Of a DNA stretch of 48,639 bases, positions 1-48,639 are shown piece by piece. The position numbers and the translations under genes were made by a program. Below the pieces are notes generated by a model that saw only the letters and a list, made by a program, of their open reading frames with translations, was not told the origin of the DNA and did not search any database. Position 1 is the stretch's first letter. Each line of letters opens with the position of its first letter. Source of the DNA: a virus (taxonomy: Duplodnaviria; Heunggongvirae; Uroviricota; Caudoviricetes); IMG/VR virus record IMGVR_UViG_2778261184_000002, positions 1-48,639 of that record; one strand, given 5' to 3'.

Positions 1-557
1 TCCTATATACATTATCTATTGTTTTTGTTGGTGGTAATGTCCCGTTCTTTGATAATTGGATTGTATCCCCGTGGGTTTATCACGTTGTAATCCCATTTGT
101 TTATGGAGTATTTGCATCTGTGTTAGCTCCTATTCTCACACTGAAGATATCTAAGCTAACAAGTAAATTATACACTGAAATAAGATATTTAGATGAAGCT
201 GCTGATTATGATAAAAGAATAGAATTGCAAAGAAAGAAAACAAAGTTAAATCAAGCAACCAATGACGCTAAATATTCAAAACAAATCTTAGATGAAAATG
301 AAAATAAACTTAATGACCTAGCTAAGAAACAGCGAGAAATTTGCGGCGCGATAAAACTATTGCATACTGATGTTGGCAGTATTATTGAGCTATATAAAAA
401 TAAGGGGGTTAGCATTGAATCTCCGCAAGATTTATGTGATTTTATAGTCGCTATAAAAAGCACATCATTCTATAATGATGACAAGCATTTTAATAAATTG
501 GTGTCTGATATTTCCAGTTTGTTTGATAATACTGGAATTGATCTTTCAAAAAAATGA
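1..557 (+). CDS. 5'-truncated CDS running off the window start: hydrophobic segment followed by a K/E/N-rich coiled-coil-like tail; function unknown
   Basis: Frame of ORF 120..557 stays open back to nt 3 (IVFVGGNVPFFDNWIVSPWVYHVVIPFVYGVFASVLAPIL...); strongly AT-rich unlike neighbours; hairpin terminator follows. Confidence 0.4.
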   Translation, partial: LYTLSIVFVGGNVPFFDNWIVSPWVYHVVIPFVYGVFASVLAPILTLKISKLTSKLYTEIRYLDEAADYDKRIELQRKKTKLNQATNDAKYSKQILDENENKLNDLAKKQREICGAIKLLHTDVGSIIELYKNKGVSIESPQDLCDFIVAIKSTSFYNDDKHFNKLVSDISSLFDNTGIDLSKK

Positions 558-563
558 AAGCCC

Positions 564-602
564 AGCATAAACTACTAGGCTATGTGTGGTTTATGCTTTT
601 TT
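564..602. terminator. Hairpin terminator between convergent genes
   Basis: AGCATAAAC (564-572) pairs with GTTTATGCT (589-597), followed by T-run 598-602; A-run upstream on + strand. Confidence 0.55.
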
Positions 603-1784
603 CACGTACTCTATAAACATCTTCTCAGCCTGTTCTTGTGGCGTTCCAGCCATGACAAGCGCATCAATGAACGCCTGCTTCTTCAGTGCGAACTGATCGG
701 CAAGGCGTTGCTGAAGTTCCTTATTTTTCTGTTTCTCACGTTGCAAGGCCGCTTCTTTTGCAGCCGCCCGTTTTTTCTGTGCGTCTGACAACTTTCTGGC
801 CCTGGTCAATTGGTCACGTAGCTTGTCGATCTTGCCGTTGTCCTTTGCCAGTTTTGTACTTAAAGCTGCCTGGCGCTTCTGATAGAGCCTCCATTCGCGC
901 TTGGCAGCGTCAACGTTTGTTTTACTGTTGCGATTGCGATTAAACTCCCTCTCGTCTTCTTTTGAGAAGTGTTTGGTTGTACGGCGGCGATCGTCACCAA
1001 ATGCAATTTGCGTTGCGGCCTTTTGTAACGCACGAGCAATACTCATTTGCCAACTAGCGGACTGTAACCGCGTCATTGAGTGGATCACGTGTTTACAGGC
1101 GACGCCTTGTAGCTTAGGGTTACGAACTTTTGGATAGGCGTATTCTTTTGGCGGTGCCAGGGCAAAGTTACCCGCAGTAGCGATGTAACGATACCAGTAT
1201 TGATGACGACCACAGTCACAATCGAAAGACACCCGCCCGGCGCACAGTGATTTAGTGATTTTCAGAGCTGATTTATCGTCTTCTGCGATGTCATCGACCA
1301 TCTGATCCCATTCTTCAAAGCGTATCCGGACGATATGGTGCTGGTGGACGGATATATCCGATGCTTCTACGCGGATATTAATCACGTTGTGGCGAAGAGA
1401 TACAGGTGTAGCTCTTTTGATACCAGATCCGTCATCCACGGCGTTATTTGCACGCTTAATATCGATTGCCTGGCTGGATGCCACCAGCTGGGCGTATGTG
1501 ATGCCAGCCGTCTTGCTGTCATATTTTTCGCGTGTTTTACTCCGTAGCTTTTCGAAACCTTTCAGGTCGTCTCGCGTGAAGAACGTGCCGCCTTTTTTCT
1601 TCCCTAACTTGAGAATATCTTCGGCGGATTTGTTCCTCAGTCTACCTGGCGTCAGCGTCCGGTGAGCTTGTCGGCGCTTACGGGTTTGTTCTTTCCTGAT
1701 AAGGTCGAATAAACGCGTGAAGTCCTTAGAGGACAGGCCGTCAGTGATATAGCGCCCGTCCTGGTTTTTCAGGAAATCAGGCAT
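591..1784 (-). CDS. SWIM-type zinc-finger protein with a long K/R/Q/E-rich C-terminal tail; function unknown
   Basis: 397-aa ORF; CxC-x(n)-CxH pattern (FDCDCGRHQYWY...GVACKHVIH); start overlaps stop of upstream ORF (ATGCCTGA coupling). Confidence 0.5.
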   Translation of the reverse strand: MPDFLKNQDGRYITDGLSSKDFTRLFDLIRKEQTRKRRQAHRTLTPGRLRNKSAEDILKLGKKKGGTFFTRDDLKGFEKLRSKTREKYDSKTAGITYAQLVASSQAIDIKRANNAVDDGSGIKRATPVSLRHNVINIRVEASDISVHQHHIVRIRFEEWDQMVDDIAEDDKSALKITKSLCAGRVSFDCDCGRHQYWYRYIATAGNFALAPPKEYAYPKVRNPKLQGVACKHVIHSMTRLQSASWQMSIARALQKAATQIAFGDDRRRTTKHFSKEDEREFNRNRNSKTNVDAAKREWRLYQKRQAALSTKLAKDNGKIDKLRDQLTRARKLSDAQKKRAAAKEAALQREKQKNKELQQRLADQFALKKQAFIDALVMAGTPQEQAEKMFIEYVKKA

Positions 1785-28964: not shown

Positions 28965-29040
28965 TGGTGGCCCCTACCGGATTTGAACCGATGACCGTGC
29001 GATTATGAGTCGCCTGCTCTAACCACTGAGCTAAGGGGCC
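28965..29040 (-). tRNA. tRNA-Ile (anticodon CAU, lysidine-type ileX-like)
   Basis: GGCCCCTTAGCTCAGTGGTTAGAGCAGGCGACTCATAATCGC...GGTTCAAATCC...GGGGCCACCA; clean cloverleaf, encoded CCA. Confidence 0.9.
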
Positions 29041-29482
29041 AATTAGTTTTTATTTTCGACGTCTGAGATTCTTCGTAACTTGTTCTATTCCGTAGACGAT
29101 CACAAGTAGAAACAGCAAAGACCATCCAGGGTTCTTATCGATATACGTCCAAAAATCCATCATTAGTTCCTGTGTTCACCTTACAGCACTGCCACTGAAA
29201 CCAACTATCCGAACAGTAGTTGTCACTCAATAGACGTGACGTATTTATTAGGTTGCGGTGCCGGGTGCCTCCCGGTGCCTGGCGAAGGTTGCACGCCAGG
29301 CGGGTGAGTATCCACAGAAGGCCGACTGTCAGTCTCAACCTTGACCCGCGTGCGCTTAGCCGCATTCACCGCAATGGTAAGAGCACTTGGCTGGCTGGGC
29401 GGCGATGATGCCTGTACGCATTTGGTGATCCGGTTCTGCTTCCGGCATTCGCTTAATTAGCCAAATACTCTTAACGTTGCGC

Positions 29483-29569
29483 TGGCGGAGAGTAATGGAA
29501 TCGAACCATCATCGCTTGCGCAATGGGACGGTTTTCAAGACCGCTTGAGCACCATGCTCCCTACTCTCC
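29483..29569 (-). tRNA. tRNA-Ser (anticodon UGA), class II with long variable arm
   Basis: GGAGAGT...CGGTCTTGAAAACCG anticodon arm, T-arm GATGGTTCGATTCCATT, acceptor ACTCTCC-G-CCA. Confidence 0.85.
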
Positions 29570-29714
29570 GGCCGTTGTGGTGGCCGGTACTGAATCTCCG
29601 GCATACGGTGCAGCCAATTAGGACTACGGACGATCACCGCTCGCGAAAGGGAAGGTTTGCGGCCGCATTTCCCTAACATCCAAGAAAGCTATCGCATCAG
29701 TCTGCGAATCCACC

Positions 29715-29806
29715 ACAACGTTGAGAACACTGGTTGTCACGCTGCAACGCAACATTTATTCGTAGATTGGGATATGACCCCGTTACGTCAGTGTTCTCAA
29801 CGTTGT
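29715..29806. repeat. Perfect 18-bp inverted repeat (ACAACGTTGAGAACACTG / CAGTGTTCTCAACGTTGT) with 56-bp loop
   Basis: Arms 29715-29732 and 29789-29806, inside the tRNA cluster. Confidence 0.8.
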
Positions 29807-30034
29807 AGTACCGGTTACGGTTCCGGCCAGGCCTCTTCCTCAACGGGGTATTCTCCATACGGACTACCGTTTATTGGTCGTTCCTGCGGTTTATGTTGTG
29901 AAGCCAGATGCTTATCTTCTGGTTGCTTCAAAGAGCTGCACTTCATCACAACGGTAAGGGTACTTCGTAGGGATTCGAACCCTCTGCCAAGCACGGCGAT
30001 CTCCGACGTCGCAAAATACCCTTACCTGTTGTGT

Positions 30035-30110
30035 TGGTGCCGATTAACGGACTCGAACCGCTGACATCCTGCTTACAAGGCAGGCGCTCTACCAACTGAG
30101 CTAAACCGGC
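30035..30110 (-). tRNA. tRNA-Thr (anticodon UGU)
   Basis: GCCGGTTTAGCTCAGTTGGTAGAGCGCCTGCCTTGTAAGCAGG...GGTTCGAGTCC...ATCGGCACCA. Confidence 0.9.
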
Positions 30111-30112
30111 AT

Positions 30113-30189
30113 TGGCGATGGTGGGTGGATTCGAACCACCGACCGACAGCTTAGAAGGCTGCTGCTCTATCCTACTGAGCTACACCATC
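30113..30189 (-). tRNA. tRNA-Arg (anticodon UCU; reads rare AGA/AGG)
   Basis: GATGGTGTAGCTCAGTAGGATAGAGCAGCAGCCTTCTAAGCTGT...GGTGGTTCGAATCCACC-CACCATC-G-CCA. Confidence 0.9.
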
Positions 30190-34627: not shown

Positions 34628-37600
34628 TTAGGCCGCATCGGCGATTATTTTACGCAGTTCATCTACCGAGTAACGCGTAGATACCATCCACGCCGGACGG
34701 TCAAAGTTCACATCAGCAACCGGGTTTGCTTCAAAATTCCAGAAACGCCCGCCAATCTTCTTAATCGCGTCTTTGGCGTTCCGTATTGTCGAGGAACCTG
34801 GCTGGTCGGCAATGAGATAAACCGCGCCAACGTCTTCGCTGACGCTCCACCAGCGCCCGCGAACACGCGCCTTAGCGCGAATCGGCTTATCATTAACCAC
34901 AATGATATAGTCATCATTCGCCGCTTCATCAGCTCTGGCTTCAGCCACTGCCGCCTGCTCTTCTCTTTTGCTTTCAGCCTGCTCAAGCCTTTCCGCGATC
35001 TCTGATTCAGTGGCCCCGCCGTTTTTCAGCGATACATAGTCCTGCCACGTTGCCGATTTGAGCGCATCCGGCAACTCATTCACATAGTCGCCGTCTTTCA
35101 ACTCACGGGCGCGACGGGTGGCCATTTCTACCAGGCGATTAACAGAAACAGCATCAGCAAAATCGTCCTTACTAATGTGTTTTTCATCAAATGCATTGAT
35201 GACAGCCCCCACCTTAATCCACTGCGCTGCTGGCGAATCCAGAGGATTATCGGCCTGAACAATGGCTAATTTCGCTCCATCGACACCATTATTAGCCAGC
35301 TGCTCCAATGCCGACCAGCCATCGGCATCGCTGAGTGATTTATATTGCTCAAACAATGCATCGCGCCAGGCCACCAGCGCAGCTCGTGTTTTCTCAATTT
35401 TCGCCGTAATTTTCGCGGCCTTCACCTGATTAAACATCCGTTCAATGTCATCAGTGTTGCTAAAGGCTTTCATCCTGCCCTGGAATAAACGGTATGCCAC
35501 CACGGTCTTCCAGAAAGATTCCAGCCCTTCTCCGGACGGTTTACGGAACAGGCTAAGAATATCTTCAGAAGTAACTTTATTAAGTGAGCGACCGGACAAA
35601 CCACGCCCTGCCATCCAGTTTTCAAACTCCTGGGAAACATCATCCATCGTGGCCTGTGACCCCCATGCCTGCATTCCCTGGATGTAATCATATCCATACA
35701 ATGCCTGGAGGAATCCCTCGCCGTCCACGACATTCAGCGGGTTATCACTGGCTTGTATTTTTGCCACTTCACGCTTCAGCGCCTCATCGTTGCCATCAGG
35801 GTAAATCCACCGCTCAGGCGCTATATCCGATGCTCGCCCGATTTTTTGACCTATTACGCCATCATAAGCCGATGACAGTGCAATCTGACCATCATCGGTG
35901 CGATAAGCCCAGTATTTAATAGCTGAACCACCGCCCCATACTCTACCAGGCTTCCCGGCAGTGACATTCATTACCCCATTGCGAATAGCATCATAGAACT
36001 GATCGCGCGTAAGTGTTGTTGATAGCTGGTGGCATTGAACACCACGTGCAGCTGTTTCACGCGATTCTGCAACTCCCTCTTCAAAGGTTACCGATTCAAT
36101 TATCAGGTTAAAGGGCAAAAATAATGCCGTCCCCGGAGAACGAGAGTAACGACTAGCCACATCCAGCCAGGATATGCGGCACGTACACCCGCCCCTTTCC
36201 GCATCAATGGCTGTAACACGAACAATTGCTGTCGTATTGTGATTCTCATCGATGATCGCGCGATAATGGCTGCCCTTGTGCAACAAGATATTTTTCTCAG
36301 TGCGTACATACTCCTGTGGGTTCTGCAATACATCGGCATCAAGCTCCAGAACCCCGGCTTTAATCGCACGTTCCAGATCACCACGAGAACGTTTCATAAC
36401 GGTGTCAGCGTCTTTAGCTCTGGTGATCGCAAAGCGTAGCTCCCGCACACGTTTTCTGTAGTCTCGCAACTGTTCCAGAACATATTTCTGCCCGTTCCTG
36501 TTCGTCCCCGCTTTAATCAGGTCGTCAAGATTGCGCTGGTAATGCTCTACCTGCTCCATCGCGCTTTTCAGTTCTGTCTCCATCATGCCGATATCTTTCC
36601 CGGCAGCATTCGCCGCTTTCAGGTAGTTATCGAGAGCATTATTGGCTTCGCGTAGGGCTTTCAGTTTCAGACGTTCTTCACGCTCTTGCGCCTGACGAGT
36701 CATGATTGCACGGCGTTCTTCCGGATTTGCCGCCAGCATAATGGCGCGTTCATCTGCGTCATCCGCATCACCATTGGCGATCTCTGACATGTCGGAGGTC
36801 ATCACCATATTGATCCAGTCCTTCTTACGTTTCAGCGTATCCAGACGGAAGTCATCAAATGTGCCTTTGCCACAATAGTAGTGAACATTGACCTTTTCTT
36901 GTGGTGAGCCTACCCGAGCGCCGCGCCCATTACGTTGGTCGATACTGGCAGGAGTCCAGGGTAGTGTCAGATGGTGGATATCGGTTGTCCCGATGTGCAA
37001 GTTAATACCTACTTCAGCCTTCTTGTTACAGATTATGATGCGCGTGCGACCTTCGTTATAGTCGGCGGCAATACCTTCCATGCCCTCAAGGCCAGCATCA
37101 TTTTTAGCTGAGAGATAATCCTCATATTGGGCAAGTTTGCTGTAGTAGGTTTCCCATGCACCTTCTTTGTATTCACCGTTTTTATTTGGCGTAGGTTCAG
37201 TCGGCTTATTCACCTTCTTCAGCTTGACGCCGCCAGCCTGGCTAACTGTCGTCGCATTGATAATGCCTATCTCCTGCTCCGGCATTTGCAGTGCACTGGC
37301 AATAATACGGCGCAGCTTCTGGTGCTGGGCTTTTTCATCAATGAAGACGATTTGTTTACCGTTCTTCAGACCTTCACGAAGGTTTTCGATCAGCGCGGCA
37401 TACTTCGGCGGGATGGGGTGTGATACCTGCTGCATATCAATACCGGCAGCCGCAATGGCCTTCAGTATTTCAGCTTCCAGTTCAATGCCAGCACGTATTT
37501 CAACATGCGACGGATGTTCGCTAAAGGTGGTCTTCACTACCTTGCTGGTACGCGTACTTACCAGCCCACCAGCGCCATCTTCTTCGGCCTCGTCTGCATC

Positions 37601-40600
37601 ATCTGCCACTTTACCGCCAGCTACTTTTGGCAGGGCATCAGCAATAGCTTTTACCTTGTCTGCAAGCTCAACGGGGAACTGGAATGTAATCGCACTGGCA
37701 TACAGATCAGGATCTATAGCAACCTTATCCATGTCGCGGATGATGGAGAAGATGAAATCATCCGGTTTTTCGTTTGTGATATGCCCGTTTTCATCGACCG
37801 TCAGCGCATCTTTACTACTTAACTCCTGTGCACGCTTACGAAGTTCTTCGTAAATGGCCTCTTGCTCTCCTGTCATCGGGATCTGCAAGGTATTCTCGAC
37901 AATATCAGGGATTTTTACCGTCGCCCCGACGTCCGCAGCAGTCTTCAGAGTAGTCCAGCGATGGAAAATACCACGCAGACCATCCAGGTTCTGGAAGCCC
38001 ACCAGTCCCTGCTTCTCTTCCACCTCACCGGAAATTTTCTGAACCTGAACTGTGGCTGTTTTACCGAACACGCGAACGAAATCATCCGGCGTAACAATAC
38101 CCATGCGCATCCACTCTTCCTGCGGAATGACAGTAGACAGCATGTTGAAAGCATCAATCGGGCTGTTCACCAGCGGTGTTGCCGTCAGCATAACCACACC
38201 ACGCCCGTTGTTGCGTTTCATCATGTACGCAGCTTTTACAGCCATGTCGCGGGCCATTTTGGATACTGCCGGGTTAGGCAAATATGCCAGTTGCCCCGCT
38301 TCGCGCCCGGCGCTAAAGGAGTTGCGGTAGTTATGCCCTTCGTCGGCAATTACGCTATCGAAGTTCATATCCTCAAAATACGGGATATTCTGCTTCTTCG
38401 TTGTACCGGTATTTGCGGCCTGGTCCTTAATCTTGTTCTTCTTCTGCGCGTCACGGTGTTTGCCAGATGCCAGGTCAAGACGCCCCATTTCCACAGCATT
38501 AAAGACCGCTTGCTGTGAGTTTTCCTCAATGGTTTCTTCTCGTAGCGGGATAGACGCGAATTGCTCTTTTGTCATGATGACCGTTCGCCAATTTGACGAC
38601 GGGATCATGTTCATGCGCTGAACGATAACGGCGCTGGCGGACTCTTTCACAACATTTCGGGTAAGAGCCTGCCCGTTACTGTCGAGGCGTGGTTCGCCAT
38701 TTTCATCAAGCACCGGCGCGGTCAGAATATTTCCGCTGTCATCACGAACTTCATCCAAACCGATAAACATCATATTGGCGAAGGCATCAGCACTGTAGAA
38801 ACTCTGTGCCTCGTGATACCAGTTCTGATAAACCGCCTTCGGAACAACAATACACGTGCGTTTAGTGCGACCTGTTTCGAAGTTATACGCCTCAAGCGCA
38901 AGCGCGGTCGTGGTTTTACCCAGCCCGGTGCCAAATCCCATGATGCCGCGCCCATCTTCTGATAAGCGACGAACTTCTTCATTCTGATAAGTCAGAGGAA
39001 TGCGCTTCCCACTAATCCCCTCCAGGCCAAGCGGTGCGTCAGAATGCGTAAACGGGATGAAGCCATTAAATGCGTCGTTATAGTCGCGGGCTATCTGATC
39101 AGCCTGCGGGTGAGTGCGTAACCAGTCGTTGAAGCTAATTTCCAGTTGAGCAATCTTATCCAGGTACTCGTTAGCGTTCTGCCCACGCGGTTTAATGCCG
39201 TTCAGGTAGTTTTCTAACTGGTTCAGGAAGCCGTCTTTATTGTTGGCCTTCTTGAACTCATTCCCGTTTTTGCCGTTTACGGTTCGTAGTTGATAGCCAG
39301 TAAATACCCCGTCCTTACCTTCGTAATCGTCCGGAGATACCAGAATGCCGTCCTCAACCTTAAGGTCGGGTTCTGTATACTTAAACTCGTCATAGCCCTG
39401 CTCTGCCAGGAACTCTTTTATCAAGCGGCGATCCAGCCAGCGGGCGTTCAGATTAACGGTGACTTTATTTAGTGGCGTGAAAATGCGTTTCTCTTCGATT
39501 TTCGCCAACTGACGCTCAAAGTTCGCTTTCTGCTCACCTGTTGACGCATCACGCCAGCCCACCAGCAATGCTGTTTTGGTTGCAATATCGCCGCTGGTGG
39601 CGCGGTCCATCGGCAGCAGGCAGCCATACCCATCAATAGCGATATCATCAAATTTCGCCAGGTATTCCAGAGCAGCATCGTCGTCTCCTGGCAGTTCGCC
39701 AGCAAACGCCTCACGAAAATCGTCCAGTGTGATTGGATTAAGTGCCACGTCACTGAAAAGGTGGGTTACAACTTGTTCCGGGCGTGTAAAGTCAATACCG
39801 GCAGCACCATCCGTTACATCAAGTCGTCCAGCAAGGAGGTCAGAAGCAGAGCCGTCCTGTTTCACGTTGCCAGTGAAAGTCATCCAGTTTTTAGCGCCAG
39901 CTTCAGCAATCCCATTCAGCTTAATCGCGTGCGGCGGACCATACTTCGCAATTTCGGCTTCCGCCAGGCGCGCGGCATCAGCAAGTACATCATCAACATT
40001 TTCCCCCAGATTACGCTTATCAAGCGCCTTGTTGATCAACTGCCCTATCAGTGCGCCGCGCATAACGCGTTCTCTGTCTTTTTCTCTCTGCTTGCCAGCA
40101 AAGCGAATCATTGCCGCTACTTCATCACTGATAACCGATGGATAGTCGGACGCGATCGCCGATATCTGGTCCCATGACAACGCCAGAATGCCATTTGTTG
40201 ACTGAAACGCGATCTGCAGATCACCAAACGTCGTAACACCATATCGATTTACATCAAGCGCGGAGGATTTGGTTGTCGCGTCCTTGACCCATTTCAGACC
40301 ATCAAACTCATGCCAGATGCCGCCTACAAGGCGTTTATCGCCCACTTTCGCGCCCTGCCATGCCTGAGTAGTTACGCCAAGCAAATCCCAATTAATGCGG
40401 CTTTCAAAGCGGCGCGATAGAGCGGTTTTCATCGACTCATTGGATACACGACCGTCCTTTTTCACCACCAGGGTATTGCGGAAGCTGGTACGCTCCATAT
40501 CGCCGTAAACAAATCGCTTCCCTTCGGTTGTAAACCATTTTCCTTTGAGGAAGGTATCCCAAAGGACGTTTGCCGATTTGAGCGTTGCATCATCCGTGTC

Positions 40601-41467
40601 GGGGATCATCTCCAGGAAGGTTTCCGGGTGTTTACGCAATACCCATACGTCCACCACGGTATCTGTACCGGATTCGCTGAACGTACCAGAAGGCATACGA
40701 TGTGCGCCCAAAAATTCCGCTTTACGGCTGACTTTATCGCGCAATTTTTTGTATTTCGTACCATCGGTCATGCCATTCGGCACCACCAATACAATTAGTC
40801 CACCAGGTTTAACCTTGTCGATCGTGCGCAACACAAAGTAATTGCCAACGTTCTTCTCGTTTGCATATGCCGGATCAAGCCCGGCAACGCCGGAACGCCC
40901 TTCACCAAACGGTACGTTACCAACAGCGTGGTCATACATTGCGTCTTTCGCCGCCAGCGCCTCAAACGCCCCGATATTCACATCGTCTTCCGGGTGCAAA
41001 AGCTGGTTTATTCGACCGGAAATCGGAGACAGTTCGGCGCTGGTCATTATCATGCCCTGCCGTTTTGTCTCCTGGAAAATACCTGTGCCCGCTGATGGTT
41101 CCAGTACGTGCCCACCATCAATACCGTAGTCAGCAAACAGATCCCATATACCTTCAGCCATAAACTGTGGCGTGTAGTATTCGTATTGGCTGCCCTCACC
41201 ATCTGTCAGGCCGCCCTCACCGGTATACCCGGCAAGAATCTGACGTTGTTCGTCAGTTAATTTCGCCCCATCGAAGCCGGGCGGAAGGGAATTAAGAAGA
41301 TTTACTGCGGCATTGTTTGCTGCCCGGCGTGTTTTCTGAATACTGACGCCATCGGCTTTCCTGACGCCAAAGGTCGCAACAGCACGTAATTTATGCAACC
41401 GACTAACAATTTCAATCAGTTCGCCTAAGCTGGAGGCTTCACTGATTGAATGAAGTAGTTTGTCCAA
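34628..41467 (-). CDS. darB: DarB-like giant protein: N-terminal N6-adenine methyltransferase-like domain plus SF2 (DEAH/SNF2-type) helicase core
   Basis: 2279 aa; MTase motif I LEPSAGTGIF and motif IV-like GNVPFG; helicase Walker A GFGTGLGKTT, DEGH box (VIADEGHNY), motif VI QRNGRGARVG; apparent TTG start with GAGGGGG RBS. Confidence 0.8.
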   Translation of the reverse strand: MDKLLHSISEASSLGELIEIVSRLHKLRAVATFGVRKADGVSIQKTRRAANNAAVNLLNSLPPGFDGAKLTDEQRQILAGYTGEGGLTDGEGSQYEYYTPQFMAEGIWDLFADYGIDGGHVLEPSAGTGIFQETKRQGMIMTSAELSPISGRINQLLHPEDDVNIGAFEALAAKDAMYDHAVGNVPFGEGRSGVAGLDPAYANEKNVGNYFVLRTIDKVKPGGLIVLVVPNGMTDGTKYKKLRDKVSRKAEFLGAHRMPSGTFSESGTDTVVDVWVLRKHPETFLEMIPDTDDATLKSANVLWDTFLKGKWFTTEGKRFVYGDMERTSFRNTLVVKKDGRVSNESMKTALSRRFESRINWDLLGVTTQAWQGAKVGDKRLVGGIWHEFDGLKWVKDATTKSSALDVNRYGVTTFGDLQIAFQSTNGILALSWDQISAIASDYPSVISDEVAAMIRFAGKQREKDRERVMRGALIGQLINKALDKRNLGENVDDVLADAARLAEAEIAKYGPPHAIKLNGIAEAGAKNWMTFTGNVKQDGSASDLLAGRLDVTDGAAGIDFTRPEQVVTHLFSDVALNPITLDDFREAFAGELPGDDDAALEYLAKFDDIAIDGYGCLLPMDRATSGDIATKTALLVGWRDASTGEQKANFERQLAKIEEKRIFTPLNKVTVNLNARWLDRRLIKEFLAEQGYDEFKYTEPDLKVEDGILVSPDDYEGKDGVFTGYQLRTVNGKNGNEFKKANNKDGFLNQLENYLNGIKPRGQNANEYLDKIAQLEISFNDWLRTHPQADQIARDYNDAFNGFIPFTHSDAPLGLEGISGKRIPLTYQNEEVRRLSEDGRGIMGFGTGLGKTTTALALEAYNFETGRTKRTCIVVPKAVYQNWYHEAQSFYSADAFANMMFIGLDEVRDDSGNILTAPVLDENGEPRLDSNGQALTRNVVKESASAVIVQRMNMIPSSNWRTVIMTKEQFASIPLREETIEENSQQAVFNAVEMGRLDLASGKHRDAQKKNKIKDQAANTGTTKKQNIPYFEDMNFDSVIADEGHNYRNSFSAGREAGQLAYLPNPAVSKMARDMAVKAAYMMKRNNGRGVVMLTATPLVNSPIDAFNMLSTVIPQEEWMRMGIVTPDDFVRVFGKTATVQVQKISGEVEEKQGLVGFQNLDGLRGIFHRWTTLKTAADVGATVKIPDIVENTLQIPMTGEQEAIYEELRKRAQELSSKDALTVDENGHITNEKPDDFIFSIIRDMDKVAIDPDLYASAITFQFPVELADKVKAIADALPKVAGGKVADDADEAEEDGAGGLVSTRTSKVVKTTFSEHPSHVEIRAGIELEAEILKAIAAAGIDMQQVSHPIPPKYAALIENLREGLKNGKQIVFIDEKAQHQKLRRIIASALQMPEQEIGIINATTVSQAGGVKLKKVNKPTEPTPNKNGEYKEGAWETYYSKLAQYEDYLSAKNDAGLEGMEGIAADYNEGRTRIIICNKKAEVGINLHIGTTDIHHLTLPWTPASIDQRNGRGARVGSPQEKVNVHYYCGKGTFDDFRLDTLKRKKDWINMVMTSDMSEIANGDADDADERAIMLAANPEERRAIMTRQAQEREERLKLKALREANNALDNYLKAANAAGKDIGMMETELKSAMEQVEHYQRNLDDLIKAGTNRNGQKYVLEQLRDYRKRVRELRFAITRAKDADTVMKRSRGDLERAIKAGVLELDADVLQNPQEYVRTEKNILLHKGSHYRAIIDENHNTTAIVRVTAIDAERGGCTCRISWLDVASRYSRSPGTALFLPFNLIIESVTFEEGVAESRETAARGVQCHQLSTTLTRDQFYDAIRNGVMNVTAGKPGRVWGGGSAIKYWAYRTDDGQIALSSAYDGVIGQKIGRASDIAPERWIYPDGNDEALKREVAKIQASDNPLNVVDGEGFLQALYGYDYIQGMQAWGSQATMDDVSQEFENWMAGRGLSGRSLNKVTSEDILSLFRKPSGEGLESFWKTVVAYRLFQGRMKAFSNTDDIERMFNQVKAAKITAKIEKTRAALVAWRDALFEQYKSLSDADGWSALEQLANNGVDGAKLAIVQADNPLDSPAAQWIKVGAVINAFDEKHISKDDFADAVSVNRLVEMATRRARELKDGDYVNELPDALKSATWQDYVSLKNGGATESEIAERLEQAESKREEQAAVAEARADEAANDDYIIVVNDKPIRAKARVRGRWWSVSEDVGAVYLIADQPGSSTIRNAKDAIKKIGGRFWNFEANPVADVNFDRPAWMVSTRYSVDELRKIIADAA

Positions 41468-45853: not shown

Positions 45854-47536
45854 TTAATTGCTCATCACAAATTTTGCAAAGTTTATTAACTGTTCTGGCG
45901 TCCAGTTTTCCGGATCGTCACCGGACGACAACGGCGCGGATTCGTACATACCATGCTCGTTGTTTTGCTCTGATTCATTCGCCTTAAACTCTTTGATCAT
46001 GGTGTTGAGAGTGTCATCGTCGATGTGCAACTGCTCAGTGAACAGATAACGCATAAACGCGTCGCTACCAGCCAGTTTCGGGTTGTTCTGGATCTGGTCC
46101 ATAATTTGGGAGATGACAGCAACAAAGTTGGCGCGTGCATCCAGTTCTCGGTTTTCCTCTTCCTGGATAGCAGTGTTCATTGAGTTGAATTGCACGTCAT
46201 AAGGGCGGTTTGTTTCGGTGTAAACCTTGCCGTATTTATAAGCGAGGTGAATGTCCAGAAGCCGATAAATAGTTCGCTGGGCGGCCTGTCTGATCCAGTT
46301 CGCACGCAATGCAGCCTGGATAGCAGTTTGCTGCCAGCCGCCTTCTCCAAGCCCTCCGCTCATCTGATCAGCCCAGCCAAGCATTGTTGCGTCAATGCCG
46401 AGGCTTGCAGCAAGCTGCCGGAGGTGAAACATAACGTCTTCGATACCACTGATATCTGCGGGTATGGATTGCGTATCAATGGTGATGCCGTTCTTCCCGT
46501 CTCCCATAACAGGTATCAGATGGTTAAGCACAGTCGGAATAGCGTTGGCATTAATCGACCTTTGCGCCACCAGGTCACTATGACGCTTCAATGCCTGGCT
46601 GACGCCACGCGTATAGTTCGCCGCATTAACCGGGTCCAGTGTGTTCGTCGTAAGAGCAATCAGGCGGTCAATTTTGGCTGCATTATTTCGCGTTGATTTC
46701 AGCGCGGCGAGCGAAGCACATAAATTAAGGTAAGGTTCATAGCTGTATTCCAGGAATGAAGTTCCGTAATTCTGCGTCTCCATTAACGGCTTATCAGCCT
46801 GATCACTTAACAGTGAATACCCTTTTGTACCGTAGCTAACCGGAATAACCTTATGCTGCGGCGTCCAATACGGGTTTTTCATGGAAACAAGATTCCACGG
46901 TTCGGTTATTACCCTGCGCAAACTATGCGTATCCAGAATGTAATCACCACTAAAACCGACCAGCTGGCTACCGCGATAAAATTCCTGGACGAAGTGTGGA
47001 AGAGTGTAATAACTGGATTCAATGCCAGTTATCCCTCTGCCCTGTTCAGCATAAGGTCGGACATAAGACACCCCAAAGATCGCCATAATCATGGCCCATG
47101 AAGGAAGTCCGTCATTAATCATTGCCCCCAAATCAGCTGTTAACTCTTCACACCTACTTACCGCCTCGGCATCGGAACCATCTTTTGGCGAAAGCATGAA
47201 TGCCAGCCCGGTTTTCTTTGAAGGCGCAAGCGCATGTGCAATATGAATGTTTAAAGCCGTTGAGATAGTCGGGCTTTTAGCCATCGTTTCCAGGATGTTG
47301 TACTTTTGCAGGCGCTCGCCGGGCAGTTCAGCGGATAAAGAAATTGAATCTGCTGCACTCGTCATGCCATCGCTGTTGCTACCCAGGATGCCTGGACGTA
47401 AAGCGGACAGGCCGGAACGAGCAACGACACTATGCCCGCTCGTAAAAACGACCGGATCGGCGGGCGTAACATCACCACCGTTGAAGGCTTTCTTCAATGC
47501 CGACAGAAAGCCTTTGTTTTTGTCTTTCGTTGCCAT
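45854..47536 (-). CDS. Portal protein candidate (Prt-like)
   Basis: 560 aa; size and position beside pro-like and darB-like genes. Confidence 0.4.
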   Translation of the reverse strand: MATKDKNKGFLSALKKAFNGGDVTPADPVVFTSGHSVVARSGLSALRPGILGSNSDGMTSAADSISLSAELPGERLQKYNILETMAKSPTISTALNIHIAHALAPSKKTGLAFMLSPKDGSDAEAVSRCEELTADLGAMINDGLPSWAMIMAIFGVSYVRPYAEQGRGITGIESSYYTLPHFVQEFYRGSQLVGFSGDYILDTHSLRRVITEPWNLVSMKNPYWTPQHKVIPVSYGTKGYSLLSDQADKPLMETQNYGTSFLEYSYEPYLNLCASLAALKSTRNNAAKIDRLIALTTNTLDPVNAANYTRGVSQALKRHSDLVAQRSINANAIPTVLNHLIPVMGDGKNGITIDTQSIPADISGIEDVMFHLRQLAASLGIDATMLGWADQMSGGLGEGGWQQTAIQAALRANWIRQAAQRTIYRLLDIHLAYKYGKVYTETNRPYDVQFNSMNTAIQEEENRELDARANFVAVISQIMDQIQNNPKLAGSDAFMRYLFTEQLHIDDDTLNTMIKEFKANESEQNNEHGMYESAPLSSGDDPENWTPEQLINFAKFVMSN

Positions 47537-47620
47537 GAATCACCGCGAATTGTTTCCAGTTTCGCGGCAGCATAATCAGTATGTGATTTGATAGGAGAGT
47601 TTTATTGGTGCTGTTAATGA

Positions 47621-47953
47621 TTACTTACACGCTTCCCTGCCCACATAGTCAGCGATGGAACCACTTACAATCCCCCCCATTTTGGGATCAGGTTTTGAAT
47701 TTTTCATCTGTTCAAGCGTCTCCCCAGAACCAAGATACTTCACTTCATTTGTCATGCAATTATATATTCTCTTCGAATATGCTGTCCCAGATGGGCCTTC
47801 CCTTTTTGTAATGATAGTTTTATATTCACCTTCACGACCAATATCCAGCACTGTATAAGTAGCTTTTGGATCAGAAGGGATTTTTATCTTATAGGGCGCA
47901 GCACAAACTGATGCAGAAGCTAATAAAGCACAAACCAGGATTATATTTCTCAT
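47621..47953 (-). CDS. Small secreted protein (AT-rich moron)
   Basis: 110 aa; signal peptide ILVCALLASASVCAAP; markedly lower GC than flanks. Confidence 0.45.
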   Translation of the reverse strand: MRNIILVCALLASASVCAAPYKIKIPSDPKATYTVLDIGREGEYKTIITKREGPSGTAYSKRIYNCMTNEVKYLGSGETLEQMKNSKPDPKMGGIVSGSIADYVGREACK

Positions 47954-47997
47954 AACTATACTCCATGTTATAAATTATCAAAGCTAAGTAAGTAAAA

Positions 47998-48555
47998 CTA
48001 ATCTGGATCAACAATAAGTTGTGAAACCTTCGCTGCAAGTCTTATATAGCGTTCAGCTTCATTTCTGGTGATTTCAAAATCCAGAAAGTGCGCGGCTTCA
48101 TTTCTTAGCGAGCGAAGCCGTTTTAACAGCAAAGCAGCGGAATCTTCAAGTTTTCCTTCTTGAATCAACCAGTCAATGAATAGTTCTGGATTCCGTTTCG
48201 GCTTTAACCCTCCCTGTATAAAACCAGAGCGCCCGGCAGCCTCCTCTACCATCAACCATGACTCCATAATAGCAGCTCTAGGTGAAAAATCAGCAATTCT
48301 CTCTAATTGTGCGATTTTATTTATATATTCAGAGTTATTATTGCCATTGTTAATATTTTTATTCCCAACTGATGCATCTGTTGCTAATACTTCTGCTGCG
48401 GTTAGTCCCGCATTAAACTCAGCTTCAGCTGCTCCAATCTTGAATCTACTCAGACGTACTATTAACTCCTTAATATCAACCCCATACTTATTAACAAACC
48501 ACACAAACACCAATGGCCATGCAAGAGCTGAAACCAAATCTGTAAATGATGACAT
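47998..48555 (-). CDS. Membrane-anchored protein with HEPN-like Rx4H motif (abortive-infection-type candidate)
   Basis: 185 aa; N-terminal hydrophobic helix (LVSALAWPLVFVWFV); C-terminal LRSLRNEAAHF; AT-rich. Confidence 0.35.
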   Translation of the reverse strand: MSSFTDLVSALAWPLVFVWFVNKYGVDIKELIVRLSRFKIGAAEAEFNAGLTAAEVLATDASVGNKNINNGNNNSEYINKIAQLERIADFSPRAAIMESWLMVEEAAGRSGFIQGGLKPKRNPELFIDWLIQEGKLEDSAALLLKRLRSLRNEAAHFLDFEITRNEAERYIRLAAKVSQLIVDPD

Positions 48556-48639
48556 CGGTTATCCTCATTCATTATATTCTCAGCTAGTTTACATATTATT
48601 AAACAGGAACAAAAATGAATTATGCGCCCATCTTCAGAT

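Follow-up and report, generated by a model that had tools for sequence, protein, structure and literature searches.

What does the AT-rich DNA between the portal gene and ddrB of a D6-like phage-plasmid encode, and what might its products do for the element that carries them? This locus lies at the end of a 48,639-nucleotide stretch of a Caudoviricetes virus record (IMG/VR IMGVR_UViG_2778261184_000002, positions 1 to 48,639; the whole stretch is called the window below). The window comes from a D6-like phage-plasmid of the P1 family, since its closing 1.1 kb is 99.3% identical to Escherichia phage D6, itself a P1-family plasmid prophage, and matches nine E. coli plasmids of ~90 kb at 99.3-99.8% identity. 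The counterpart region of D6 holds two minus-strand genes, orf23 and orf24, situated between ddrB and the portal gene prt. A first-pass annotation had described this DNA as a moron encoding a membrane protein with a HEPN-like motif plus a secreted protein. We find that orf24 encodes a 185-residue DUF4145-type HEPN protein with a conserved N-terminal Trp-Pro hydrophobic helix, and we favour, with moderate confidence, a role for it as a membrane-tethered stand-alone HEPN ribonuclease (RNase) in abortive infection or superinfection exclusion.

The orf24 product is a DUF4145-type HEPN protein

The HEPN proposal of the first-pass annotation had been built on the C-terminal motif LRSLRNEAAHF, which is indeed present and contains R151-x4-H156 (Table 1). 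The open reading frame (ORF) is preceded by a ribosome-binding site (GAGGA, 48563-48567), and its product is named 'DUF4145 domain-containing protein' in RefSeq by the NCBI pipeline. When the 185-residue protein is searched against Pfam, DUF4145 (PF13643) aligns over profile positions 4-85 of 88 with an E value of 7e-4 and a score of 20.0 bits against a cutoff of 23.1, and there is also a weak match to HEPN_RiboL-PSP. Scanned singly, 29 of the 34 full-length aligned homologues match DUF4145 (E ≤ 0.01; best 4.4e-7), and the other Pfam matches among these 34 are to HEPN families only, namely Swt1, RiboL-PSP, HepT and Csm6. These matches, together with the conserved RNxxxH signature, bear out the HEPN proposal.

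The family to which the protein belongs is large. Our homologue search returned 95 proteins, mostly full-length at 180-200 amino acids (aa) and most of them with a precomputed PF13643 match, and a profile search over 1.84 billion representative proteins gave 567 clusters (50% identity) at E ≤ 1e-30 and 4008 at E ≤ 1e-10, the best 150 clusters listed being full-length matches. From the alignment, F47, S91-P-R-A-A95..E98.W100..E104 and R151 are invariant, N152 and H156 reach 90% conservation or more, and 99% of 237 family members have an Rx4-6H motif.

Structure prediction, which the first-pass annotation had named as a check on the HEPN fold, agrees with this assignment. The AlphaFold2 model (predicted local distance difference test, pLDDT, 79.5) has a continuous N-terminal helix of 59 residues (2-60), a disordered Asn-rich linker (61-73) that is variable among homologues, and a C-terminal five-helix domain (74-182), which is predicted to form the all-alpha helical bundle of the HEPN fold. 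Foldseek places HEPN proteins and HepT toxins in the top ranks for this model, without statistical significance. Sequence searches of the PDB with the single protein and with a profile found nothing significant, the best relevant match being chain 9oij of HepS, which we take to be a HEPN defence nuclease, weakly aligned over RNxxAH...EAER (E = 0.13). NCBIfam yielded just one weak match (E = 0.033), to the N-terminal region of the type I restriction-modification endonuclease model PRK11448. Taken together, the HEPN assignment is well supported. RefSeq already has this domain call, and the architecture was published in 2013 (PMC3710099); the result on orf24 is a well-supported annotation, not a discovery.

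An antisense ORF of 177 codons (window 48176-48639, plus strand; D6 locus L001 6675-7208) overlaps orf24 and runs off the window. Judged from the sequence, it is most likely a shadow ORF, since the protein encoded on the minus strand is strongly conserved across the family.

Table 1. Coordinates of the features at the D6-like locus, given as positions in the window
Feature	Position	Strand	Basis or remark
Gene for the 185-aa Trp-Pro hydrophobic helix + DUF4145-type HEPN protein (D6 orf24)	47998-48555	-	ORF, homologues, RefSeq name
N-terminal hydrophobic helix of the orf24 product, aa 7-21 (LVSALAWPLVFVWFV, L7-V21), presumed inner-membrane anchor or sensor	48493-48537	-	Conserved W13-P14
HEPN (DUF4145) domain, aa 74-182, five helices; invariant SPRAA..E.W at aa 91-100	48010-48336	-	
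Rx4H catalytic motif, R151-N-E-A-A-H156	48088-48105	-	Reverse complement AGA AAT GAA GCC GCG CAC
AT-rich accessory insert (moron) in the slot between ddrB and the portal gene	47590-48639, and ~60 bp more past the window end		Low GC and empty-site comparison
Gene for the exported 110-aa protein (D6 orf23)	47621-47953	-	Signal peptide aa 1-18 (47900-47953)
Portal-gene leader, left edge of the variable slot	47537-47589	-	Conserved in D6, pPSS-10_3 and pTB423
Claimed ORF running off the window, not a gene	48615-48639	+	17 codons then stop in D6

A conserved Trp-Pro pair marks the N-terminal helix

The hydrophobic helix that the first-pass annotation had noticed at the N terminus of the same ORF is also present, and its most conspicuous feature is the W13-P14 pair (encoded at 48514-48519). 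This pair is invariant in our homologue alignments A1 and A3, the latter being an N-terminal 60-residue profile, and is found in 237 of 239 family members at a median position of 13. Over the 237 family members the Kyte-Doolittle 19-residue score has a median of 1.96, and 86% of them score at least 1.6. The family has a net charge of -0.95 ahead of the helix and of +2.9 on its C-terminal flank, a bias by which the N-terminus would lie outside and the HEPN domain on the cytoplasmic side.

Fusions of receiver domains to the Trp-Pro helix were reported in 2013 (PMC3710099). Our own search with the N-terminal 60-residue profile for other effector domains on this helix brought up merely 11 short fragments.

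orf23 and orf24 lie in an accessory insert at a cargo hotspot

The sharp drop in base composition after the portal gene, pointed out in the first-pass annotation, is clear from the guanine-plus-cytosine (GC) values: 0.49 in the portal gene (window 45854-47536), 0.40 in each of the two ORFs and 0.389 across 47537-48639. The last value is the minimum of the window, 3.7 standard deviations under the mean (1100-bp windows, 0.482±0.025). The neighbour that had been called portal-like is a P1 prt-type portal gene, and past the window end comes the 3' end of a P1-like ddrB, on the minus strand.

Comparison with related plasmids defines the insert. It is ~1.1 kb in size, holds two cargo genes and extends from window position 47590 to about 48699, which corresponds to D6 L001 6089-7198. 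Plasmid pPSS-10_3 represents the empty site: its ddrB abuts the portal gene, with 51 bp replacing D6 L001 6089-7198 (empty slot at L002 6038-6101). The extent of 47621-48639 given earlier thus falls within an AT-rich insert whose edges lie further out, with a start at ~47590 and an end ~60 bp past the window. Nine of the 89 E. coli plasmid records that have the 5' end of the portal gene carry the insert, and its carriers in PLSDB are 14 plasmids, nine from Salmonella and five from E. coli. The presence/absence polymorphism, the empty site in a relative and the low GC support the earlier view that the insert is horizontally acquired accessory cargo. In pTB423 the slot (L003 6221-10158) is filled by other cargo, comprising a hypothetical gene, an XRE regulator, a small ORF and an enlarged ddrB-like gene of 3042 nt. 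The ddrB-prt junction of D6-like plasmids is therefore a cargo hotspot, and one worth mining in D6-like phage-plasmids.

On the portal side, the leader is kept in D6, pPSS-10_3 and pTB423 up to ...GTATGTGATTT, with divergence after this point. The same three elements keep a hairpin, CCGCGAA-N11-TTCGCGG (~47541-47565 on the minus strand), a short distance upstream of the portal ATG, and the conservation of the leader stops a few bases past it. Judging by its sequence and position, the hairpin could be a regulatory or processing element of the portal operon. At the other end, the further ORF that had been thought to start at 48615 reads MNYAPIFRYVMNAQKEH before its stop codon in D6; it is unannotated there, is shorter than the at least 20 aa of the ORF list and is no gene (Table 1).

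Two plasmids of Salmonella sp. Sa1423 (MK356557 and MK356558; L032 and L033) carry copies of the insert that are 91-95% identical. They were dropped from selection analysis as seemingly error-rich assemblies, not natural variants, in which all genes of the region, including the portal gene, are fragmented into small ORFs, and they account for several short 'Salmonella sp.' fragment proteins in the homologue matches.

Genomic neighbourhoods of orf24 homologues

Within the Enterobacterales clade closest to D6 (50-59% identity), all examined contexts are mobile or defence DNA. In Salmonella the homologue is found where an integrative element ends, beside an integrase; in Serratia, an HNH gene and an integrase adjoin it at one end of a prophage; and in Klebsiella and Raoultella it occupies the accessory slot of satellites that have a D5-type primase and a capsid module. 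The Cronobacter homologue is located in an island flanked by TIR, AbiTii and ApeA genes. In a more distant metagenome-assembled genome, another DUF4145 gene, a HEPN gene of the Ymh type and DUF5677 are next to the homologue. In Serratia (L008 4084-5558 and L009 271-1745) the HEPN homologue starts 17 bp downstream of a gene for a 299-aa HNH_2 nuclease on the same strand; this may be a local two-gene arrangement, absent from the other contexts seen.

For a broader view, we scanned the GTDB representatives, one genome per species over 185,579 species, with a scan limited to one peptide pattern, which gave 99 stretches confirmed by tblastn. The neighbourhood sample comprised 38 species-level loci with the two nearest ORFs on each side, or 150 neighbouring proteins in total. 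No Pfam family occurs in more than two of these 150 neighbours, so a conserved partner gene is absent. Genes of the cyclic-oligonucleotide-based antiphage signalling system (CBASS) adjoin the homologue in two of the 38 loci, and DUF4747, DO-GTPase1, a NACHT-associated domain and PDC-S18 were each seen once. The association with defence islands, present in some loci and not uniform, is suggestive.

Possible function of the orf24 product

The reading of the orf24 product as a membrane-tethered RNase of abortive infection or superinfection exclusion draws together the HEPN fold, the catalytic motif, the membrane module, the lack of a partner gene, the carriage on mobile elements and the precedent of the defence RNase RAZR (see below). 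We infer for this protein membrane insertion, RNase activity, a trigger and a defence phenotype, which could be connected as follows. The short N-terminal hydrophobic helix would anchor the protein in the inner membrane with its N-terminus out, and a conserved amphipathic helix and the flexible linker would join this anchor to the cytoplasmic HEPN RNase domain. In the lysogen the protein would be inactive. A membrane-proximal cue from an incoming phage or another mobile element would then assemble the HEPN domains, creating a composite Rx4H active site, and the cutting of RNA (tRNA, rRNA or mRNA) by these domains would halt translation. The superinfection-exclusion role suggested in the first-pass annotation, or a role in abortive infection, is plausible on contextual evidence but unproven.

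A wider and more doubtful proposal, which we put forward only tentatively, is that the whole family of Trp-Pro helix plus DUF4145 HEPN proteins constitutes an unrecognised single-gene immune system, in which the membrane module senses an envelope-level infection event and switches on the cytoplasmic RNase, and which in D6 would serve superinfection exclusion. Candidate cues at the envelope might be the insertion of the DNA-injection machinery or a perturbation of the membrane. It is pure speculation that, if the HEPN target were tRNA, for instance its anticodon loop, the four tRNAs of D6 (Met, Ser, Thr and Arg) might spare D6 translation and so confer self-immunity. The proximity of the portal gene was considered as a hint of a RAZR-like trigger and set aside as a coincidence, for the homologues sit in unrelated contexts. 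If the defence role is true, it would give a function to a large and widespread family of small Trp-Pro HEPN proteins that has been a computational prediction since 2013.

A number of observations count against the defence reading, and they are best considered alongside the alternatives that they bear on. To begin with, neither of the two proteins encoded by the insert matched any PADLOC model at E ≤ 1, tblastn against 50,697 phage records found a homologue in D6 only, and our literature search found no experimental study of the Trp-Pro helix plus DUF4145 HEPN family.

The transcription of the insert raises a further point. A classical moron has a promoter and a terminator of its own. The name given in the first-pass annotation suits the locus in that it is an accessory insert with deviant composition that is missing from close relatives; as to the signals, no terminator-like site was found in the insert region, and its four promoter-like sites are no excess over the 3.4-3.6 expected in shuffled sequence. 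Autonomous transcription of the insert and expression in the lysogen are thus hypothetical. Both orf23 and orf24 share the orientation of the flanking late genes ddrB and prt, and read-through into the insert from the late dar operon is possible. The same facts suit a function that serves the phage itself, in which orf24 would be transcribed together with the late operons dar and prt and, during lytic growth of D6, would break down host or phage RNA at the membrane for host shut-off or the timing of lysis. We regard such a lytic function as unlikely, because ~90% of the D6-like plasmid records were found without the insert, so that it must be dispensable, and because homologues occur in non-phage settings, on an integrative element, in defence islands and at plain chromosomal sites.

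The helix itself is less hydrophobic than might be wished of an anchor. Its Kyte-Doolittle maximum of 1.63 over 19 residues in the 185-aa protein is borderline, and the hydrophobic run free of charges covers just ~15 residues and has a proline at its centre; for the latter reason the spanning of the membrane by the Trp-Pro helix, as judged from sequence, is likely but unproven. The long helix could also serve another purpose. In a pore resembling that of Csx28, the helix and the HEPN-like domain would oligomerise and depolarise the cell when triggered, the Rx4H motif being structural and not catalytic. The architecture, the size and the near-equal numbering of the motif match Csx28 (10.1101/2021.11.02.466367), and the 59-residue helix of the AlphaFold2 model could self-bundle; with homology to Csx28 undetected and Cas13b absent, we consider a pore of this kind rather improbable.

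In the wider family, many of the neighbouring genes are of the housekeeping kind; an ammonium transporter, a TonB-dependent receptor and SelO are examples. This would be expected if these proteins carried out a housekeeping type of signal-responsive RNA turnover at the membrane, with no role in conflict and with their carriage on D6 a matter of chance. Such a function was the original proposal for the architecture (PMC3710099), and the metabolic and transport neighbours of many distant members speak for it. It fits poorly with the patchy distribution (99 stretches in the 185,579-species scan with its one peptide pattern) and with the contexts of the D6 clade, every examined one of which is a mobile element or a defence island, and we give it little credence.

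Finally, plasmid addiction, in which a HEPN toxin would stabilise the plasmid prophage against an unseen antitoxin (the neighbour gene, a small RNA or self-inhibition), is very unlikely: HEPN toxins are common in such systems, HepT/MNT toxins are among the Foldseek matches and D6 is maintained as a plasmid, but there is no MNT gene and no conserved partner (no family in more than two of the 150 neighbours), and the adjoining 110-aa protein is exported and occurs independently elsewhere.

The exported neighbour encoded by orf23

The second cargo gene, orf23, encodes a protein of 110 aa, and the signal peptide assigned to it in the first-pass annotation is confirmed (Table 1). Its ORF has the Shine-Dalgarno sequence GGAG. 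Cleavage is expected at V-C-A/A after residue 18, a signal peptidase I site, and the D6 copy has no lipobox. We found 108 homologues, nearly all of ~110 aa, in Enterobacterales, Pseudomonas and Xanthomonas. They have in common the signal peptide and two invariant cysteines, in D6 C66 (47756-47758) and C109 (47627-47629), and some have a lipobox and would be lipoproteins. The homologues are morons at other places in prophages: in Pseudomonas a homologue lies directly after a CI-like repressor gene, and in siphovirus-type prophages of Serratia and Enterobacter the tail chaperone and the tape-measure gene flank it.

No Pfam match was found for the 110-aa protein. The DUF2511/YebY label attached to one homologue was rejected, since Pfam gives it no support in the query and 28 homologues, and a match of 20 residues to 6xi1 (a 'flagellin hook IN motif' protein), which came up repeatedly, was discarded, each repeat being insignificant on its own. 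The structure model (pLDDT 91.5) is more telling: it predicts an antiparallel sheet with a C-terminal helix, in which C66 ends beta-4 and C109 ends the helix. The same combination of antiparallel beta-sheet, C-terminal helix and export is found in Haemophilus influenzae Protein E and Pseudomonas aeruginosa PseM (structure 9M3L), and the Cys99-Cys148 disulfide of Protein E is placed like C66/C109. The 110-aa protein would thus have a Protein E-like fold with a disulfide from beta-4 to the helix. The identity to Protein E and PseM is just 8-10%, and the function of these proteins (adhesin, muramidase) is therefore not transferable. From the model, we predict that orf23 encodes a separate periplasmic, disulfide-bonded, Protein-E/PseM-like protein; that it acts as an envelope-level factor of lysogenic conversion or exclusion is a guess.

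The two genes had earlier been seen as a unit. This view does not hold, because homologues of orf23 and orf24, many on each side, never co-occur in the contexts examined. In particular, no HEPN neighbour was found beside the homologues of the 110-aa protein in the prophage contexts examined, which indicates that orf23 and orf24 are independent cargo.

Other features of the window

A second AT-rich patch (GC ~0.40) lies at window 1-1100 and is the sole other stretch below 0.41. It corresponds to the orf73 region of D6, to which it is merely 92% identical, and an accessory gene is possible there. Four tRNA genes are found at 28965-30189 on the minus strand (Met-CAT, Ser-TGA, Thr-TGT and Arg-TCT), and an ORF of 2279 aa occupies 34628-41467 on the same strand; by its size the latter might correspond to a P1 DarB-like gene.

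Comparison with known systems

Several temperate phages carry HEPN proteins of their own. Prophage-encoded single-gene HEPN defences include HepS of Salmonella Gifsy-1, Tha of Staphylococcus aureus prophages and gp57r of phage Butters, which are reported to restrict competing phages. HepS, Tha and gp57r differ from the orf24 product in being soluble, in belonging to other HEPN subfamilies and in having tail-protein triggers, and no significant homology connects them with it. With regard to the HEPN-MNT toxin-antitoxin pairs, no MNT gene adjoins orf24, which in D6 stands between ddrB and the gene for the exported protein, orf23.

Csx28 is closer in its general build. This type VI-B2 CRISPR accessory protein forms an octameric pore, depends on Cas13b and has its motif arginine off the subunit interface (10.1101/2021.11.02.466367). 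Both Csx28 and the orf24 product are ~180 aa long, with one N-terminal transmembrane helix (putative in the latter) and a cytoplasmic HEPN-like domain, a C-terminal four-helix bundle in Csx28, and the Rx4H residues are R152/H157 in the former and R151/H156 in the latter. We found, however, no sequence similarity and no top-ranking fold similarity between the two, and Cas13b is absent.

The architecture itself was described by Anantharaman et al. in 2013 (Biol Direct 8:15; PMC3710099) as one transmembrane helix, in which WP is strictly conserved, with a C-terminal DUF4145-like HEPN domain after it for which a cytoplasmic location was predicted, with a Vibrio cholerae protein (gi 153825856) as the example. 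The authors proposed, in general terms and with no experiment reported, that such proteins couple membrane stimuli to RNA degradation. With its N-terminal hydrophobic helix as the putative transmembrane segment, the orf24 product is identical to these proteins in architecture, with no structural difference, and what sets orf24 apart is its place in a phage-plasmid hotspot.

The nearest functional precedent is RAZR, also known as PD-T7-4 (Nature 2026, PMC13017515), a DUF4145 abortive-infection RNase that cleaves single-stranded RNA, whose defence is abolished by alanine substitution of the R and H, and which is activated by assembly around ring-shaped phage proteins such as portals. DUF4145 is present also in BxaP and Ishtar. 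RAZR and the orf24 product are both encoded by a single gene and share the DUF4145 HEPN domain with a conserved catalytic R and H. They differ at the N terminus, where RAZR has a Cys4 zinc finger and the orf24 product, which contains zero cysteines, has the hydrophobic Trp-Pro helix instead. If our preferred reading of the orf24 product as a membrane-tethered defence RNase is true, a membrane-coupled trigger would join the known ways in which HEPN RNases are switched on.

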